A stretch of DNA of 64,000 nt, taken from a phage. This document shows, one piece after another, positions 3,394 to 47,418 of the stretch (position 1 is its first letter; each line of letters starts with the position of its first letter). Under the pieces are notes generated by a model, which saw only the letters and a list, made by a program, of their open reading frames with translations, did no database searches and had not been told where the DNA came from. Where the stretch lies: the NCBI GenBank assembly GCA_025823825.1, contig GCA_025823825.1_4720.1; one strand, written 5' to 3'. Position numbers and translations under genes: made by a program.

Positions 3394-4500
3394 TTAAAAG
3401 TAATATTTCAGCGCCTCGCGAGAGACATCAAGCATAGCCGCTGTTGAATTCGTAAAGAACTCGGCATAGCCCACAAGCGGCACCTTGATCCACGCGGTAT
3501 ACGCTGTAAGGTATCGAGAAAGGGCTACCATAGCATCATCAGAAGCAGTAGTAACTGACAACTGACCTTGTTGACGATAAACGTCGTTAAGTTTTGCTTG
3601 TAGATTCCCTGCGATTTCGAGTAACTCGTTGGCGTACTTTTTACGATGGTAACTAACCAGCAAATCAACACCCGTATTTACAGACTCGAGTAGCACACCA
3701 ACTTGTTCTAATGTTGGCGTTGTAACCACCATATCCAGTTCAACGGACGGTACATCCTGGACTTCAAACCGTGCAGATTGAATAGCGAGGGACTGTTGAA
3801 TTGAACCAGAACCTGAGGCGGTAACCTGATCGAGTCGTAGCGTACGGTTGCCCAGTAACGTTACGTTGACGAGTTTCGATTCGTTCAGCGTACTGTAGAC
3901 TTTATGCAATAACGTATACGCATCACGGTTAATCACATCGATTAATGCGGTATCCGTCTGTTTTAAGATAATGTCGAGCGCTCTATCTAACGTATTAGCG
4001 AACTGCTTGAAGTCATCACGGAACGACGAAGACAAGAGATATTCAGCGATTGCTAAATTCTGCTTGTATAACGTATTCCCGGTTGTGAAATCGAACCCAA
4101 AACTGTTCCCATACCGTAGGTGCGGAGCCAACGTCGACGAAGCTTCGAAGCTTTGCGCGATGGGTTTCCGACCAACGGCTTTTGTGTAATGACGGCGGAT
4201 GTTGCTGAGTTCGAGTTGTAGTGCGCGACTACGATCGATAAACCGTGCGATAAACGCGGTAATGTTCCGCAACGTTGTCCAGATCGCATCGATGATGGCT
4301 TTGATGATTTTCATCGCAAGCTGATTGTACGATTCCATCGTGAGGAGATCAGCACTTTCTGTGGTATAACCGGTTGCCGGAATACCGCCTGCTTGCTGAT
4401 AAATAAGCTGGTGAATTTGTCGTTGCGTTGCTGTCTCTGGCACAGGTAATGTTTTTAACAAGCTTAACGCTTGAATCTGTCCGTCATAGGTCTGCAGCAT
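3394..4500 (-). CDS. hypothetical protein (368 aa from internal ATG; track start 4542 gives 382 aa)
   Basis: Internal ATG at 4500 has GAGGAA 7 nt upstream and cuts overlap with upstream gene to 17 nt; the ATG at 4542 lacks an RBS. Confidence 0.65.
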   Translation of the reverse strand: MLQTYDGQIQALSLLKTLPVPETATQRQIHQLIYQQAGGIPATGYTTESADLLTMESYNQLAMKIIKAIIDAIWTTLRNITAFIARFIDRSRALQLELSNIRRHYTKAVGRKPIAQSFEASSTLAPHLRYGNSFGFDFTTGNTLYKQNLAIAEYLLSSSFRDDFKQFANTLDRALDIILKQTDTALIDVINRDAYTLLHKVYSTLNESKLVNVTLLGNRTLRLDQVTASGSGSIQQSLAIQSARFEVQDVPSVELDMVVTTPTLEQVGVLLESVNTGVDLLVSYHRKKYANELLEIAGNLQAKLNDVYRQQGQLSVTTASDDAMVALSRYLTAYTAWIKVPLVGYAEFFTNSTAAMLDVSREALKYYF

Positions 4501-34788: not shown

Positions 34789-35262
34789 ATGCCAGTTTCA
34801 TCCAAACCAAGAAAAAAATCAGTAGGAAAACCGAAAGCTCAGGAAACAACAGCAATTCGTTGGGACGAGTTACGTGAACCTATCGAAAACTGCGAATTGT
34901 TATTGGGCACCCTGGGTGCGGCTATTTACCAAGCGACGCAGCCCTGTCGTTTACGATTAACCCAAAACAAACGTGATGAGTTCGTTGCGTTATCAACAAG
35001 CACGAATAAAGATCTGACCGAACTTCAAACCGAGTTGACGACGATCAAGAACTCCATTACGCCGATGTACGGTAAAGAAGTCGATGAACAAAGTATTCTG
35101 TTACAGTACAACTACGGGATGTCGTTAATGAACATCCTGGAACGCGCATCCGATATTCTGCGTCCTGACGTTGCACGCCTGAGCCAACTGCGTGTTGAAG
35201 GGATGGAGAACCAGATCCGATTCGCTAACAGTGTTAAATCTCAAGGAGCCACCGAAGCATGA
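34789..35262 (+). CDS. hypothetical protein (157 aa), basic N-terminus
   Basis: ATG with AGGAGT RBS; ATGA overlap with next gene. Confidence 0.7.
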   Translation: MPVSSKPRKKSVGKPKAQETTAIRWDELREPIENCELLLGTLGAAIYQATQPCRLRLTQNKRDEFVALSTSTNKDLTELQTELTTIKNSITPMYGKEVDEQSILLQYNYGMSLMNILERASDILRPDVARLSQLRVEGMENQIRFANSVKSQGATEA

Positions 35263-36944
35263 GCGAACAAGAAAAAGAAGTCGTGACGAATCAGGAAGCC
35301 ACCGAACGTTCAGAGTCGTCCGTTGAAACTACGATTCCGGCAAGTTCCGAGCCGGTTGGTTCCGCACAGCAGGAAAGTAAAGACGAAGTCAGCACGACTA
35401 AAGAAGATGTAGTGGCTCCAGAAGCAACCCGTGAAGAAGAACCATCACATCCACCGCTAATCGATTTCTCGAAGGCGACGATACGTTTCCAATGCGAAGA
35501 CATTCGTCCTAAGAGCCCGAAGAAAACAAAACGCCAGCCGTTGGTGTTACCGTTATATTCTCCGCGTGTACAGACAACGTATTACCGGGAATACATCAAC
35601 GAAGCAATGGATACCGTACAAGCCATTGTCGCTCAACGCGGTAAACCGACAGACGAACAGTTTGATAAATTCAGTAAAGCGGTGGTGCAATCGGTTGCTG
35701 ATGGACAATATCATCCGCGTGGTCCAGCTCACGATCGTGCGTTGGAACGTAAGGGCAGTCAGTGGACTAACGTGCCCGTAGACTCATCGGGTGTTGGTCG
35801 CGTTATTCCTGGCATCCCGCAACCGAACCATATTCCTGATGATGTCGAAGCGCCGCTGACAGGAACCGATGCGATCTATTTTGCCATCCGTAATACGAAA
35901 TCAGGTGCGCCTGCGGTAATGCCGTTATGGCATAGCGGTATTAAGCTGCAGTTTAATCCGCCGTCAAATGAACGTGTTGCAATTATGCACGAACGTATTG
36001 CTCGCGATAAAATCCTGGGTGGACGTGATAGTACCGGCTTCCTGTTTTCGGCAACCTCGATTATCACCATGAAGCACGCAATCGAATTAGCATTAGAATG
36101 CTGCTACATGGCCAACGTACCTAACCTGGATATACAGCGTTTGAAAGACATTATTCCGGTTACCGATGTTCCAGCGTTATTGTTGAACGTGTTGGTAACC
36201 ATGTATCCGTACGGATATCCTTACGTACAGACCTGCTATCAGAATCCAGAAACCTGCGACTATCGTGTCGAAGATACCGTAAGCTTTGCGAAACTCTATC
36301 AAGTTGACAACAGCGCAATAACCAAACGTATGCGACAGATCATGACCGAAGGTCCGGTCATGACAGATGAACTTTTGCGTGAGTATGCAAACGAACTGGG
36401 TGAAACAAACTCCCGTACGCTGGATCTGTCCGACAACGGTTCTGTTATCATTGAGCTTGAAGTACCGAAGATCTCACGACAAATCGCCATGGGCGAACGC
36501 TGGTTAAGCGATACCCTGGAAGATCTGCGTGATATTCTATCGCGTCCGTCAATGACCGAAGAAGAGCGTGATCGTGTTATTCGTGAACGTCAGTTCTATA
36601 GCTGGATGCGTCAGTATGATGCGTGGATCAAATCGATGCACGTGTCAGTAAACGGTACCATGCGTCGTGTAAGCGATGCGGATACAGCAACGGTATTAGC
36701 GCAGCTGTCTCGTGATAGCGATCTTCGTGAACGCTATATCGATGGGTTGATGCAATTCATCGGTGATTCGACGATTGCGCTTGCAGCAATGCCTGCCTGG
36801 AAATGTCCGAAATGTAATGCCGATATTGCTGACAATCTGCGTGACCAGAAATACTACGATCTGATTGCTTTGGATGTACCCCAGCTTTTTTTTACCCTAA
36901 ACTCCGTCCAATCTCTTCAGGAGGGGATGGACGCGGTATTCTAA
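35259..36944 (+). CDS. hypothetical protein (561 aa); U8 slippery tract 17 codons before its stop
   Basis: ATG start coupled to upstream gene; C-terminal region contains CTT TTT TTT ACC (see finding). Confidence 0.8.
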   Translation: MSEQEKEVVTNQEATERSESSVETTIPASSEPVGSAQQESKDEVSTTKEDVVAPEATREEEPSHPPLIDFSKATIRFQCEDIRPKSPKKTKRQPLVLPLYSPRVQTTYYREYINEAMDTVQAIVAQRGKPTDEQFDKFSKAVVQSVADGQYHPRGPAHDRALERKGSQWTNVPVDSSGVGRVIPGIPQPNHIPDDVEAPLTGTDAIYFAIRNTKSGAPAVMPLWHSGIKLQFNPPSNERVAIMHERIARDKILGGRDSTGFLFSATSIITMKHAIELALECCYMANVPNLDIQRLKDIIPVTDVPALLLNVLVTMYPYGYPYVQTCYQNPETCDYRVEDTVSFAKLYQVDNSAITKRMRQIMTEGPVMTDELLREYANELGETNSRTLDLSDNGSVIIELEVPKISRQIAMGERWLSDTLEDLRDILSRPSMTEEERDRVIRERQFYSWMRQYDAWIKSMHVSVNGTMRRVSDADTATVLAQLSRDSDLRERYIDGLMQFIGDSTIALAAMPAWKCPKCNADIADNLRDQKYYDLIALDVPQLFFTLNSVQSLQEGMDAVF

Positions 36945-37006
36945 TCGATCCGCGATACGGGTTACATGACGGACAACTTGTTCGTAATGATGAAAAAATC
37001 TGGGAA

Positions 37007-37366
37007 TTGCTGTTAGCGCGTAAAGGCGATGGTGGCATGAAACTGAACATCGAAATGGGTATTGCGTACGATACCATGTTTGGCTTGTACGATCGTGTTA
37101 ACGACTGGACGCCGTTGAAATGGGTTGCTCAGCACCCCGCTGAAGATCCCTGGGACAGATTAGGGATTAAGCCCTTAATCGAGGATTATGTTCGATTCGG
37201 TATTAAAGAGTTCATGACGTTGGATGCGTTTTTACAAGCACCGTATCCTTACGCGCAAACGGTACTCAAAATCGCACAAGACGAACTGCGGAAACGTAGT
37301 GCGGTACTGGACGACGATGAGGACAAGTTACGACGAGAAGAAGAACGTTTACGAAACGGAAAATAA
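37007..37366 (+). CDS. hypothetical ORF, possibly expressed only as a -1 frameshift extension of 35259-36944
   Basis: Track start is TTG with no RBS; frame is open back to 36845 with no ATG until 37037. Confidence 0.4.
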   Translation: MLLARKGDGGMKLNIEMGIAYDTMFGLYDRVNDWTPLKWVAQHPAEDPWDRLGIKPLIEDYVRFGIKEFMTLDAFLQAPYPYAQTVLKIAQDELRKRSAVLDDDEDKLRREEERLRNGK

Positions 37367-37367
37367 A

Positions 37368-37877
37368 ATGGCGAGATTTACCAGTTTGATTGGGTTGGAT
37401 ATTTGGGAAACACCGGCTGACGTTCGGGTTATTCCTGTCAACACCGTCGGTGTGATGGGACGCGGTCTTGCCAAACAGGCAGCCGATCGCGTCCCCGGTC
37501 TTCTTGAAGCGTACCGTAAGCAATGTCAAGATGGGTTTAAGGTGGGCGAAGTCGTATCGTATCAACACGGCGATAACGATCAACTCACCTACGTGTTGTT
37601 TCCATCAAAATCGGATTGGCGTGAAAGAACACGACGCGAGTATATCGTTAACGGATTACTGGCGTTAAAAGCGTGGTTATTGGAGCTTCAGTTCGAAAGA
37701 GACGGCTTCTCATACCAGCGTCCGGCTGAACCGCTGATTGTCGCAATTCCTCCGGTTGGTTCTGGTTGCGGTAATATCGGTTATGGACAATCTGAAACAA
37801 TCCAGCCTCAATGGGTACGCGCACAAATCAAACAGTATCTTGCCACCGTACCGAACGTTCATTTCTACTTGTTCTAA
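37368..37877 (+). CDS. putative macro-domain (ADP-ribose binding/hydrolase-like) protein (169 aa)
   Basis: ATG 1 nt after upstream TAA; N-terminal VRVIPVNTVGVMGRGLAKQAADR resembles the macro-domain Gly-rich ADP-ribose-binding loop. Confidence 0.5.
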   Translation: MARFTSLIGLDIWETPADVRVIPVNTVGVMGRGLAKQAADRVPGLLEAYRKQCQDGFKVGEVVSYQHGDNDQLTYVLFPSKSDWRERTRREYIVNGLLALKAWLLELQFERDGFSYQRPAEPLIVAIPPVGSGCGNIGYGQSETIQPQWVRAQIKQYLATVPNVHFYLF

Positions 37878-43619: not shown

Positions 43620-44072
43620 TTACTTTTTGAGCGCTTTAAGTTCTTCTTCCAACGCTTCCACTTTTGCCGTAAGCTTCTGTACTTGTTTGATTAATGGAAC
43701 CACCAAACGTTCGTACATAACACCTTCAGCGACGAGTCCGTTAGAAGAAACGATAGCGGGGTCATCTTCTTCGGTTGCATCACGCCAGTGCACGTACTGC
43801 GGTGCGATCTCACCAACCTCTTCAGCAATCAACCCATACCAACCCCAATCCTTGTTGTCTGCTTCACATGTGGAACGATACCAAACAGGACGCATCTCCA
43901 ATACTTTATCCGCTTGTTCATCCGTGATATTCTCGATATCTTTCTTATAGCGACGCGACGACGTTGAACGAAACACATTGTTGATCCCAGAAACAGGACT
44001 GATATACATGTTAGCCCCGCTGGTTGTAGTGCTAATGTCCCATACCGCAAATCCGCCGTTACTCCCATTTTT
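43620..44072 (-). CDS. S74-type intramolecular chaperone-like domain, open frame out of phase (+1) with upstream tail fiber gene; probable frameshift-fused fiber C-terminus or homopolymer artefact
   Basis: SSRRYKKDIENI...WYGLIAEEV...PQYV...YERLVVPLIKQVQKL...LEEELKALKK matches the auto-processing chaperone pattern; frame open from 44072, first ATG only at 44009; A7 run at junction. Confidence 0.55.
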   Translation of the reverse strand, partial: KNGSNGGFAVWDISTTTSGANMYISPVSGINNVFRSTSSRRYKKDIENITDEQADKVLEMRPVWYRSTCEADNKDWGWYGLIAEEVGEIAPQYVHWRDATEEDDPAIVSSNGLVAEGVMYERLVVPLIKQVQKLTAKVEALEEELKALKK

Positions 44073-47000
44073 TTACGATCAATGTGTTGGCAATAATGTC
44101 CAGGTTATTGTCGTAACCGGTTAATTGTCTTTCCGTTACATAACTGGATAGATTGACCGAGTAGTTCTTACTGTTATAACAACGACGCCATCCTGGGCTG
44201 TTGGTACTGCCATTATAGTTGTCGTAGCTATAAATGAACTCGGAGTTGGTTTTCGCACCACTGACGGAAGACGTGGTTGCGGTCGTAACACGGATGGTAT
44301 AGTTTGTCATCCCGAAGCTAACGACCTCGATAACAGCACCAGCCAGAGGGATAATACCGCACTTGGTTTCACTGTCTGGGATGTATGCGCTGTCGGCAGC
44401 TGCGAAGGAGCAACGTGCGACCCAGGCGCGGGTATTGAATGCACCTTGGTTTTGCAACAACGTGATAAACGATGAGGTCGTAATCGAGCTGTTATTATCA
44501 CCGGTGATCAACCAGCCGGTCGGGCATGCGGTTGCGCCAACGTTTTTCGCTGTTAACGTGATGTTCTGCGATCCGTCGAAGGCTACGCCACTGATAGTGC
44601 GCGCAGTCTGCAGTTTCGTCGCCGTTGCTGCGTTCCCTGATGTGTTCTGGTTCCCTGCGGCGTTAACACCCGGCAGATTGATATTCGCACTACCGTCGAA
44701 AGACACCCCACCAATGGTGCGGGCGGTTTTCAGTTTTGTCGCCGTGGCGGCATTACCGGTCGTGTCTTGGTTACCGGTGGTGTTTACCCCAGGTAGGTTG
44801 ATATTGGCCGTTCCGTTAAATGAAACACCACCAATCGTCCGTGCCGTTTGCAACTTCGTTGCGGATGCCGCATTCCCCGTGGTGTTTTGGTTACCTGTTG
44901 TATTCACACCTGGGATACTATCCTTAGATGTGTAGATCTGTGCCCATTCCGACCAGTTCGCATCTGATGCATCACGACGCGAACGTAGGTAAGCTGGAGC
45001 GTGTGCGCCTGAAGTACCTGACCATCCAATAAGGATCTCACCTTCACCTACTGCGGTTGCTCCTTTAAGATGAACAACGTTACCGTAGGCTGTAGGGTAT
45101 CCGTTATTGTACGCTTCATACATCTGGATGCCCGTATTGCTGCCCTGGGTCGCATTAGCTAAAGCGGTGACTCGTCCCATGGAAGCGAGCACGTTAATGC
45201 TAAAGCTAATATCAGTTGTACCATCAAAGGCGACCCCATTAATCTTCCGTGCTGTTTGGAGTTTCGTGGCAGTAGCCGCATTACCAGAGGTACTCTGATT
45301 ACCTGCTTTGTTCACGCCTGGTAAATCAATGTTGGCGGTTCCATCAAAGGACACACCCCCTATGGTTCTCGCCGTCTGAAGTTTTGTTGCTGAACCGGCG
45401 TTTCCGGAAGTGCTTTGATTACCCGCCGCGTTAACACCCGGTAGGTTAATGCTAGCAGAACCATCAAAAGAAACACCACCGATTGTGACAGCCGTTTTCA
45501 ATTTCGTGGCTGTCGCAGCGTTACCCGTTGTATTCTGATTGCCAGCTGCATTGACGCCAGGTAATGCGATATCAGCTGTGCCATCGAACGCGACACCGCC
45601 TATTTTACGGGCGGTTTGTAGCTTGGTTGCTGTAGCGGCATTACCGCTGGTATTTTGCGTACCGGCTTTATTTACACCGGGAAGATCGATGTTAGCAGAA
45701 CCGTCGAAGCTGACGCCACCTATTGTTCTTGCGGTAGCGAGTTTAGTTGCTGTGGTTGCAGCATTACCAGCCTTTAACCATTCGCCCCATGGGCCATCCA
45801 CGCCGTTCCATGAAGCTGTTAAACTACGTACGTAAATATTTCCTGTACGTACGGTGTAACGCTGTGTTCCACCGAATTGCCCAGCTGGGAGCACTTCGAT
45901 GTAACCTACTGCGTTTGCTTCAGGGAAATTGTGGGCAGCATCAGCATTCGTTGACGTTTGTTTGGACCAAATACCCACAGACGCTTCAACCGGACCGTAG
46001 GTATTTAGATTCGCATCGGTGGGAAGCTGTCCTCGGAAACGTCGGAATAATGAAGCTGTTAACCCCAACGTTGTTTGCATCCCTTCAATGCTTGACTGCG
46101 ATAAAAGCGCCCGAGCTGTCGACGTGATAGCCGCTAAAGCAACCTTATCCGTACCGGTAAAATACGGGAATTTGTTTGCTGAAGTTGCTAAACCTGAAAG
46201 GGCGGTCAGTAATGCGTTAAGGGGTTGTTTCCCAGCCAGCGCGTTAGTTACTGTTGTTGCGAAATTAGGGTCGTTGCCTAAAGCTTGAGCCAGCTCATTA
46301 AGCGTATTTAGCGCTTCTGGCGACGAGTCGATCAGTGATGCGATAGCACGCATCACAAATTCCGTGTTGGCGATCTGTTGACTGCTATCGTTATCTGCAG
46401 CCGTAGGTGCTGCTGGGATACCGGTGAACACAGGGTTATTAAGATCTGCCTTGAGAGCGATGAGACGTCTAAGCGCTTCGACATCGACTTTCAGGTTTTC
46501 CCATCCGACGAGATAACCATCACCGGTTGTATGATAACGGTTGTACCAAAAATCACCATTGACACCGAAATAGAATATTCCTTTCTCTTCGTATTGTGGG
46601 CCGGAACTGTTCCGTGATGAGCTAATGTATTTTATTTCGATAAGGCCGTCGAATACCACTCCTGGGATGATTTTATTATTTCCAGCTGGCTGTGATACTT
46701 GGTACATCCCCGGGGTTGCGGCTTTAACCCACGTTAAGAATTCTGTTACTCCGGCGCTACCACTGAAATTCTTAACGTCGGTAAGTATCGCCCCATAACC
46801 GAACATACCGGGTAGAGCAACTCGTCCGCTGGTACGGTCACGAATATTTGATGCGACGACAGGCAGCTGTTTACGAACATTGTTAACCGCCTTAGGTGTG
46901 GCCGATTTTGTCTCGTCATCGCTATCGATGGCGTTGCTCAGGATGGTCAGTCCTCGAGTATTTGTGGTCGCATCAGGAAGAAACGCGTTATCCAACACCT

Positions 47001-47418
47001 TAAGTTGTACAGCGCTCGTGTTACTAACAACGAGATACATCTGACAGTTAAGAACGCTGGATGCACCTTCAGTAGGCACCGGCTTATATCTTTCCGGTGC
47101 GCTGCAAACAGCGATCAGAACACCCTGATCGTCATACAGACCGATTTCACGTACCCAGAATCCACCTTGGTTTACAGGAATAATACCCTCAACAATAATC
47201 CTGGTTGTGTCATCCGTATCGACACGGATATTAGCAACTTCCCCACGATAAACTTCGTGTACGAGCGCTGTTTGACCAACAGCCGGTGTCGGTATCGACC
47301 CGTTACCATCGCCAACAGCAAAATGTGTGATTTTTAGTTTCTCGCCACCAGGAAGTAGTGCGGCGGCGATACGTTCAGCGCCTTTATCGGTAATGACCGT
47401 TTTATATGTTGTACTCAT
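44059..47418 (-). CDS. tail fiber protein (1119 aa) with P2 gpH-like N-terminal domain and tandem 33-aa fiber repeats
   Basis: N-terminus TVITDKGAERIAAAL...ITHFAVGDGNG...GQTALVHEVYRG...GGFWVREIGLYDDQGVLIAV resembles the P2 gpH / lambda Stf fiber N-terminus (from memory); 8-9 repeats of TARTIGGVSFDGSANIxLPGVNxAGNQxTSGNAATATKLQ. Confidence 0.85.
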   Translation of the reverse strand: MSTTYKTVITDKGAERIAAALLPGGEKLKITHFAVGDGNGSIPTPAVGQTALVHEVYRGEVANIRVDTDDTTRIIVEGIIPVNQGGFWVREIGLYDDQGVLIAVCSAPERYKPVPTEGASSVLNCQMYLVVSNTSAVQLKVLDNAFLPDATTNTRGLTILSNAIDSDDETKSATPKAVNNVRKQLPVVASNIRDRTSGRVALPGMFGYGAILTDVKNFSGSAGVTEFLTWVKAATPGMYQVSQPAGNNKIIPGVVFDGLIEIKYISSSRNSSGPQYEEKGIFYFGVNGDFWYNRYHTTGDGYLVGWENLKVDVEALRRLIALKADLNNPVFTGIPAAPTAADNDSSQQIANTEFVMRAIASLIDSSPEALNTLNELAQALGNDPNFATTVTNALAGKQPLNALLTALSGLATSANKFPYFTGTDKVALAAITSTARALLSQSSIEGMQTTLGLTASLFRRFRGQLPTDANLNTYGPVEASVGIWSKQTSTNADAAHNFPEANAVGYIEVLPAGQFGGTQRYTVRTGNIYVRSLTASWNGVDGPWGEWLKAGNAATTATKLATARTIGGVSFDGSANIDLPGVNKAGTQNTSGNAATATKLQTARKIGGVAFDGTADIALPGVNAAGNQNTTGNAATATKLKTAVTIGGVSFDGSASINLPGVNAAGNQSTSGNAGSATKLQTARTIGGVSFDGTANIDLPGVNKAGNQSTSGNAATATKLQTARKINGVAFDGTTDISFSINVLASMGRVTALANATQGSNTGIQMYEAYNNGYPTAYGNVVHLKGATAVGEGEILIGWSGTSGAHAPAYLRSRRDASDANWSEWAQIYTSKDSIPGVNTTGNQNTTGNAASATKLQTARTIGGVSFNGTANINLPGVNTTGNQDTTGNAATATKLKTARTIGGVSFDGSANINLPGVNAAGNQNTSGNAATATKLQTARTISGVAFDGSQNITLTAKNVGATACPTGWLITGDNNSSITTSSFITLLQNQGAFNTRAWVARCSFAAADSAYIPDSETKCGIIPLAGAVIEVVSFGMTNYTIRVTTATTSSVSGAKTNSEFIYSYDNYNGSTNSPGWRRCYNSKNYSVNLSSYVTERQLTGYDNNLDIIANTLIVKKWE
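44540..45760 (-). repeat. in-frame tandem repeats of about 99 bp (33 aa) inside the tail fiber gene, two blocks
   Basis: Repeated peptide unit read in translation; coordinates back-calculated from protein positions, approximate. Confidence 0.7.

Follow-up and report, generated by a model that had tools for sequence, protein, structure and literature searches.

The gene pair and its slippery heptamer

The 64,000-nucleotide stretch of phage DNA analysed here (assembly GCA_025823825.1, contig GCA_025823825.1_4720.1; the whole stretch is called the window) shares 96.9% identity with Escherichia phage Goslar, which belongs to the chimalliviruses, the nucleus-forming jumbo phages. The subject of this study is a pair of overlapping open reading frames (ORFs) in the window, which correspond to gp081 and gp082 of Goslar, to gp77 and gp76.4 of phiKZ and to gp074 and gp073 of PhiPA3. 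The upstream ORF (0 frame) encodes a protein of 561 amino acids, and the downstream ORF lies in the -1 frame. Homologues of the 561-residue protein were detected by tblastn in 159 phage records, the homologue in phiKZ being gp77. The upstream gene is conserved across chimalliviruses, and comparison of the homologous loci makes it likely that its ORF is joined to the downstream one by programmed -1 ribosomal frameshifting. The features of the locus are listed in Table 1.

The codons CTT TTT TTT ACC (36885-36896) were located in frame within the 561-residue gene, and they hold a U UUU UUU heptamer in the X XXY YYZ register. The heptamer had been placed in frame, seventeen codons before the stop, by the initial annotation, and this was borne out; after the heptamer region 16 sense codons are followed by the TAA. 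The -1 frame was likewise found to be open from 36845 to 37366, as had been noted, with its first ATG at 37037 and the TTG at 37007 as the sole earlier NTG codon. A shift into the -1 frame would extend residues 1-545 by 157 and give a product of 702 residues, in agreement with the roughly 160 added residues first proposed. Runs of seven or more T are under-represented in the window (15 found, 26.9 expected) and the site is kept in distant homologues, and it is therefore not regarded as a chance feature. Goslar has the same T8 run and the same surroundings. Among five Goslar-clade genomes, which reach down to 51% amino acid identity, the longest nucleotide-invariant run of the 2.1-kb gene pair is a block of 20 nt that begins with the T8 run. 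Between the 0-frame stop and the ATG at 37037 the window differs from Goslar by two substitutions, both of which are synonymous in the -1 frame.

Table 1. Positions of the features of the gp081/gp082 locus in the window.
Feature	Position	Strand	Remark
0-frame gene, 561 aa (short product S)	35259-36944	+	Goslar gp081 / phiKZ gp77 family, PHROG 4585
20-nt block, T8 + ACCCTAAACTCC	36886-36905	+	longest nucleotide-invariant run of the gene pair in five Goslar-clade genomes
Slippery heptamer U UUU UUU	36887-36893	+	X XXY YYZ register; part of a T8 run (36886-36893)
-1 frame extension, 157 codons + stop	36893-37366	+	Goslar gp082 / phiKZ gp76.4 family, PHROG 12109
Candidate stimulatory hairpin UCCGUCC / GGAUGGA, 7 bp (36903-36909 / 36925-36931)	36903-36931	+	starts 9 nt past the heptamer
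Second hairpin	36932-36954	+	0-frame stop in the loop
0-frame stop TAA	36942-36944	+	end of the short product
TTG, mechanically listed ORF start	37007-37009	+	most likely an internal Leu codon; no Shine-Dalgarno sequence; lost in loci L053, L056 and L059
ATG, gp082 start in the Goslar annotation	37037-37039	+	most likely an internal Met codon; conserved coding sequence upstream

Conservation of the site and of the -1 frame

The comparison covered 41 IMG/VR loci, four Goslar-clade contigs (87-51% amino acid identity) and 16 metagenome loci. These about 60 loci were grouped into 21 clusters below 45% identity and include phiKZ, PhiPA3 (gp074/gp073), 201phi2-1, RAY and Noxifer. At every locus with a complete end the downstream ORF was found in the -1 frame, open from upstream of the 0-frame stop and running 136-182 codons past it, while the +1 frame was soon closed. 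The comparison of homologues suggested by the initial annotation thus came out in its favour, as the clusters retain the slippery site together with the overlapping -1 frame.

A conserved Phe-Phe pair marks the site, and its nucleotides were TTT TTN in all loci. The variants observed were T TTT TTT, T TTT TTC, T TTT TTG, A/G TTT TTT and G TTT TTC, for the most part U UUU UUU or U UUU UUC in the mRNA. The canonical heptamer T TTT TTY/G was present in 17 of the 21 clusters, and the other four keep a tetramer, U_UU.U or U_UU.C. All of these motifs belong to the U-type set that was measured to be efficient in E. coli, where heptamers of the type H_HH.U_UU.Y are efficient -1 shifters and the tetramers U_UU.C and U_UU.U rank second and third after A_AA.G (PMC4066793). 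The first Phe codon was TTT in 21/21 clusters, with a joint probability of about 10^-7.5 calculated from the codon usage of each genome, and TTT was fixed at the site even where the genome favours TTC 5-10-fold (TTT:TTC e.g. 2:19 and 3:24). The preceding codon encodes Leu, Ile, Val, Thr, Ala or Ser, depending on the cluster, and its wobble base was T in 17/21 clusters (expected fraction 0.33; P = 7e-6). The site and its frame relation are conserved beyond the demands of the protein sequence. In phiKZ, pEa54, loci L051 and L052 and others, a -1-frame stop is found just 4 codons upstream of the site, which confines entry into the -1 frame to about 15-25 codons; no second shifty motif was found inside this interval in the lineages with the upstream stop.

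The conservation also bears on a technical explanation, in which the homopolymer is miscalled (a true T9 or T7 and one continuous ORF) or the gene pair is a frameshifted pseudogene. Homopolymers are error-prone, and one extra T would fuse the frames. The miscalled U8 run, offered as the alternative by the initial annotation, fails on the comparative data: Goslar, the window and over 10 other, independent assemblies from the clade all have an identical T8 run, and the same frame offset was found with T5-T8 in the about 60 loci, from isolates and metagenomes alike. Purifying selection on both frames argues against a decayed gene. Sequencing error and pseudogene, both extremely improbable on these data, were rejected.

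Selection on the -1 frame was analysed in 16 closely related pairs by tallying substitutions at -1-frame codon positions 1/2/3. The counts were 104/54/231 from the 0-frame stop to the first possible start and 479/304/967 in the rest of the -1 ORF. As the third-position excess of the start-less stretch equals that of the remaining ORF, the start-less stretch is taken to be translated in the -1 frame. The overlap from the site to the 0-frame stop gave 49/21/29. Here the excess is at -1 position 1, which is the wobble position of the 0 frame, so the 0 frame dominates the overlap. In phiKZ and Noxifer the conserved -1-frame sequence (VVND..RYSRL) starts right on the 0-frame stop. The 0-frame tails of the homologues share the pattern FF-x-L-x-x-x-[RK]-[ILV], and the tail of the short product also appears to be under selection. 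Read in the -1 frame the overlap looks like a variable linker rich in Pro and Gly, and a selected short tail together with a linker-like overlap would fit two functional products.

Independent expression of the downstream ORF would call for termination-reinitiation or for initiation at TTG 37007, at ATG 37037 or at a near-cognate codon by the stop, all of them weak or non-canonical starts, and the T run would be a mere by-product of the conserved Phe-Phe. Databases do annotate the downstream ORF as a separate gene, and in 201phi2-1 (locus L043) a TTG coincides with the 0-frame stop; the missing -1-frame coding bias in the overlap would also agree with such a start. Across 40 non-redundant loci, however, the -1 frame contained no ATG, GTG or TTG from the site up to the 0-frame stop, and its earliest possible start lay 8-101 codons past the site at non-homologous alignment positions. 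The distance from the site to the first NTG was 85 codons in phiKZ, 58 in pEa54, 101 in locus L027 (with L031, about 100 codons devoid of a start) and 38 in the window. The first possible start is often downstream of a conserved motif, G-H-[VI]-x-x-P-x-F-G, so that the start-less stretch both carries this motif and evolves as coding sequence. Gene callers give the downstream protein 80-182 residues depending on the genome. No good AGGAG-type Shine-Dalgarno sequence was found before 37007 or 37037, whereas most genes of the window have one, and no promoter-like (sigma-70) or terminator-like site was found on the + strand between the two ORFs. The TTG at 37007, which had been described as lacking a ribosome-binding site, is in addition replaced in close, near-identical relatives. 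A separate start would also leave unexplained the TTT instead of TTC in 21/21 clusters and the preceding T. Independent initiation, named at the outset as a finding that would speak against a frameshift, is not indicated by these data and is considered very unlikely.

The annotations of phiKZ and pEa_SNUABM_54 leave a gap of about 200 nt between gp77 and the small ORF (gp76.4 in phiKZ), at 3911-4128 of the phiKZ locus (L004) and at 3857-4050 of the pEa_SNUABM_54 locus (L006). These "intergenic" gaps are the start-less 5' part of the -1 ORF. Accordingly, gp76.4 of phiKZ is annotated with 81 amino acids, while its -1 reading frame counted from the slip site has 165 codons. None of the six annotated records inspected contained a joined coding sequence for the gene pair.

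Proposed mechanism of the frame change

That some recoding event makes a gp081-gp082 fusion is considered highly probable. In the mechanism proposed here, ribosomes on the gp081/gp77-family gene would meet CU-U UUU UUU-A with tRNA-Phe in both the P and the A site. The majority would stay in frame and stop 16 codons further on, which would give the 561-residue short form (S) with the C-terminal peptide ...FFTLNSVQSLQEGMDAVF. A fraction would slip back by one base, with both tRNAs re-pairing perfectly with UUU, and would then continue in the -1 frame (YPKLRP...), pass the 0-frame stop and end at 37366, giving the 702-residue long form (L). The 16-residue tail would be swapped in L for a linker rich in Pro and Gly and a helical domain of about 130 residues. 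The junction would be LFF-YPK, with the predicted tryptic peptide YYDLIALDVPQLFFYPK. gp082, like gp76.4 of phiKZ and gp073 of PhiPA3, would be the C-terminal part of L and no independent gene. The frame relation, the conservation of the slippery motif, the absence of a conserved start and the coding signature in the start-less -1 stretch were all computed directly; from these we infer a ribosomal slip, a function for both forms and an S:L ratio that is set by the efficiency of the slip. The extra domain may add an interaction surface at a sub-stoichiometric level.

The main alternative, and a serious one, is transcriptional slippage, in which an RNA polymerase (of the host, or one of the multisubunit enzymes of the phage) would stutter on the T run and add one U to some of the mRNAs. 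The same 702-residue fusion with the identical LFF-YPK junction is predicted, and sequence alone cannot separate the two mechanisms. Chimalliviruses use their own RNA polymerases, and a T selected at the wobble position of the preceding codon makes the run longer. Genes of E. coli avoid UUUUUUU, for which such slippage is a possible reason (PMC4066793). The T run has a length of T8 in the Goslar clade and of T7-T8 in most clusters, but the run length itself is not conserved, as 9/21 clusters keep the arrangement with T5-T6 only. Examples of these are GAG TTT TTC in the Noxifer clade, TCT/GCT TTT TTC, and ACA/ACG/CTG/GTG TTT TTT, the last group of which includes PhiPA3. For appreciable slippage bacterial RNA polymerase needs roughly nine or more A or T, and sometimes 7-8 suffice. 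Since the T5-T6 runs are well below this length, transcriptional slippage is disfavoured. The invariant feature is instead the codon-phased UUU UUN, as needed for tRNA re-pairing. An origin of the fusion in transcriptional slippage is thus regarded as improbable.

A downstream structure was considered as a possible stimulator of the ribosomal slip. The 72 nt past the heptamer in the window had a folding energy of -25.1 kcal/mol (z = -2.5), and the segment after the heptamer ranks among the most stable 2% of segments of its own gene. The hairpin that the initial annotation advised looking for was found as a candidate at 9 nt past the heptamer in the window; a structure shared by the family was not. 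It is possible that the hairpin is a stimulatory element in the Goslar clade, but it is no feature of the family, much as in lambda G/GT. A hairpin of the CUCCGU...AUGGAG type was observed 9-10 nt past the heptamer both in the window (36902-36931) and in loci L027, L028 and L031, in different codon phases. The proteins of these two clades are about 25% identical, and the similarity of their hairpins may be due to convergent selection at the RNA level or to coincidence.

Several observations weigh against a programmed -1 frameshift. The alifold analysis over the Goslar clade gave one compensatory pair only, which leaves the hairpin almost without covariation support. No family-wide downstream RNA structure was detected in the 21 cluster representatives (median percentile about 0.4; Fisher P 0.03-0.2), and no Shine-Dalgarno-like stimulator was found upstream. 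Weaker, non-canonical heptamers occur in several clades (A/G UUU UUU) and in the Noxifer clade, where G UUU UUC is the only form. The overlap itself shows no -1-frame coding bias, and for this reason the case for reading its 8-17 codons in the -1 frame is made by the open frame and by the absence of any start. Finally, no natural in-frame fusion of the two ORFs was found: a word-indexed search gave only five close relatives of 536-561 residues, and a phmmer search with the extension against 1.84 billion representatives gave 16 matches, all of 92-158 residues and none of them fused. The extension contained no conserved block that could be used as a seed for a locus search.

The features found at the locus are a register-correct heptamer, a long overlapping -1 ORF with no conserved initiation signal and conservation beyond the need of the protein, as in the X XXY YYZ class of frameshift sites. 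A stimulatory element is not obligatory for this class, as lambda G/GT shows.

Related systems, gene products and significance

The initial annotation had compared the site to the frameshift in the tail chaperone genes G/GT, and this comparison held for the mechanism but not for the identity of the gene, which by neighbours and families is not a tail gene. Lambda G/GT slips by -1 at a heptamer that closely precedes the stop of its upstream ORF, as is proposed for the window, and in both cases the downstream ORF has no start of its own. In lambda and most long-tailed phages two products with identical N-termini are made in a fixed ratio, as would be the case here, and the position of the site is conserved across very divergent phages, like that of the chimallivirus site. 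The G/GT frameshift requires no strong stimulatory structure (PMC5009743). The G/GT genes have the major tail (or tail tube) gene on one side and the tape measure gene on the other, whereas the gene in the window adjoins the virion RNA polymerase beta subunit, the gp79 and gp78 homologues and a macro-domain gene. No similarity to tail chaperone families was found in Pfam, NCBIfam or PHROG, or in a fold search of the C-terminal domain. The upstream part has 545 residues in the window compared to about 100 in G/GT, and the heptamer is U UUU UUU in contrast to G GGA AAG in lambda.

Insertion sequences of the IS3/IS911 type also have overlapping ORFs in the -1 relation (OrfA-OrfAB) and make a fusion protein by slippage, and U_UU.U_UU.C is among the heptamers naturally used in the IS3/IS911-family context (PMC4066793). 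Insertion sequences usually have A AAA AAG/A followed by a pseudoknot or hairpin, and often a Shine-Dalgarno sequence ahead of it, whereas no such conserved stimulators were found in the chimallivirus loci, and unlike IS3/IS911 the gene pair of the window has no transposase homology. The gag-pol site of HIV-1, U UUU UUA, resembles the site in the window in its U-rich heptamer, in the tRNA-Phe in the P site and in a hairpin that follows a short spacer. The virus is eukaryotic, and its stem-loop is well defined and supported by covariation, while the window has a candidate hairpin in one clade only. The HIV-1 gag-pol frameshift signal works in E. coli. The tau/gamma frameshift of E. coli dnaX is a bacterial -1 frameshift that gives two functional forms with a common N-terminal body, as is proposed here. 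It differs in that the shifted product is shorter, made at A AAA AAG with strong Shine-Dalgarno and hairpin stimulators and an efficiency of about 50%, whereas the shifted product of the window would be longer.

Proteins of the gene pair had no match in Pfam or NCBIfam, and PHROG 4585 (the 561-residue protein) and PHROG 12109 (the extension) are families of unknown function. Sequence searches of the PDB gave no match and no relative with a solved structure. An AlphaFold2 model of the 561-residue protein, built from an alignment of five sequences, had a predicted local distance difference test (pLDDT) score of 33 and was unusable. The 157-residue extension was predicted to be helical, with a confident model for residues 90-157, and its layout is a linker rich in Pro and Gly followed by the helical domain. 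A fold search with this model gave nothing in the PDB and, in BFVD, only uncharacterised chimallivirus proteins. Four cysteines of the 561-residue protein, C326, C333, C516 and C519, were invariant in five distant homologues (20-26% identity), the last two within a C516-P-K-C519 motif; their codons are at 36234-36257 (C326, C333) and 36804-36815 (C516-P-K-C519) of the window. This conservation suggests a structural metal site that the two distant pairs form together, some 25 residues ahead of the slip site. The N-terminal region of the protein (35259-35450) is acidic and of low complexity, with in-frame indels of 21 nt in total relative to Goslar gp081 (554 residues), and the length of the protein ranges from 536 to 561 residues among members of the Goslar clade.

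The order virion RNA polymerase beta subunit, gp79, gp78, gp77 and small ORF is common to phiKZ, Noxifer, LucasX and pEa_SNUABM_54. On one side the neighbours of the gene pair are head-associated genes and one for a virion RNA polymerase subunit; on the other side is the macro-domain gene. In the interval 37364-37877 the most likely start of the macro-domain gene is the ATG at 37368, 1 base past the TAA (37364-37366) of the -1 ORF, with a weak Shine-Dalgarno sequence. The Goslar RefSeq record starts this gene about 50 nt further upstream, overlapping gp082, and other gene callers give a version of 169 residues. In the Goslar clade translation of the macro-domain gene, starting 1 nt past the -1 stop, could be coupled to frameshifted ribosomes.

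Two further heptamers were observed in the window. An in-frame A AAA AAA is present two codons before the stop of a 1119-residue gene on the - strand (gene 44059-47418; site and stop within 44059-44074). The -1 frame is then open for 79 codons and overlaps an ORF of another frame (43620-44009), which could be chance. The gp080 homologue (34789-35262) has an in-frame A AAA AAA at codons 8-10 (34812-34818), where the -1 frame is closed after 19 codons; this is probably merely a Lys-rich N-terminus.

No report of a gp77/gp76.4 frameshift was found in the literature covered on phiKZ, on jumbo phages and Chimalliviridae or on recoding. It is not mentioned in a 2016 recoding review, a 2021 comparative-genomics paper, a 2026 jumbo-phage review or a 2026 preprint on the structure of the Goslar virion with its supplements. 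The mechanism is already known; this case is new, is conserved in every chimallivirus relative examined and corrects the annotation of the gene pair. A more far-reaching possibility is that the recoding is ancient, predates the divergence of the chimalliviruses examined (with Pseudomonas, Erwinia, Escherichia, Xanthomonas and other hosts) and has an essential S:L ratio; taken as a whole this is doubtful. The S:L ratio might also be tuned during infection by phage ribosome-binding proteins, by the tRNA supply or partly by slippage of the unusual phage RNA polymerases, in which case the site would be a regulatory switch and not a fixed-ratio device.

Chimalliviruses are intensely studied because of their nucleus-like compartment, and those of their conserved genes to which no function is assigned are being listed, tagged, deleted and modelled ORF by ORF. 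If the proposed frameshift is true, gp76.4 of phiKZ, gp073 of PhiPA3 and gp082 of Goslar would be the C-terminal domain of an isoform of about 700 residues of the neighbouring gene. The annotated N-terminus of the small ORF differs in almost every genome. The frameshift would join the small number of -1 frameshifts that phages have beyond those of tail chaperones and mobile elements, as a natural U UUU UUU site that works in bacteria with no obvious stimulator. Annotation of the family, with its 159 phage records, would need a ribosomal-slippage join, and both the design and the reading of knock-outs, green fluorescent protein fusions, interaction screens and structure predictions would change for the two ORFs.

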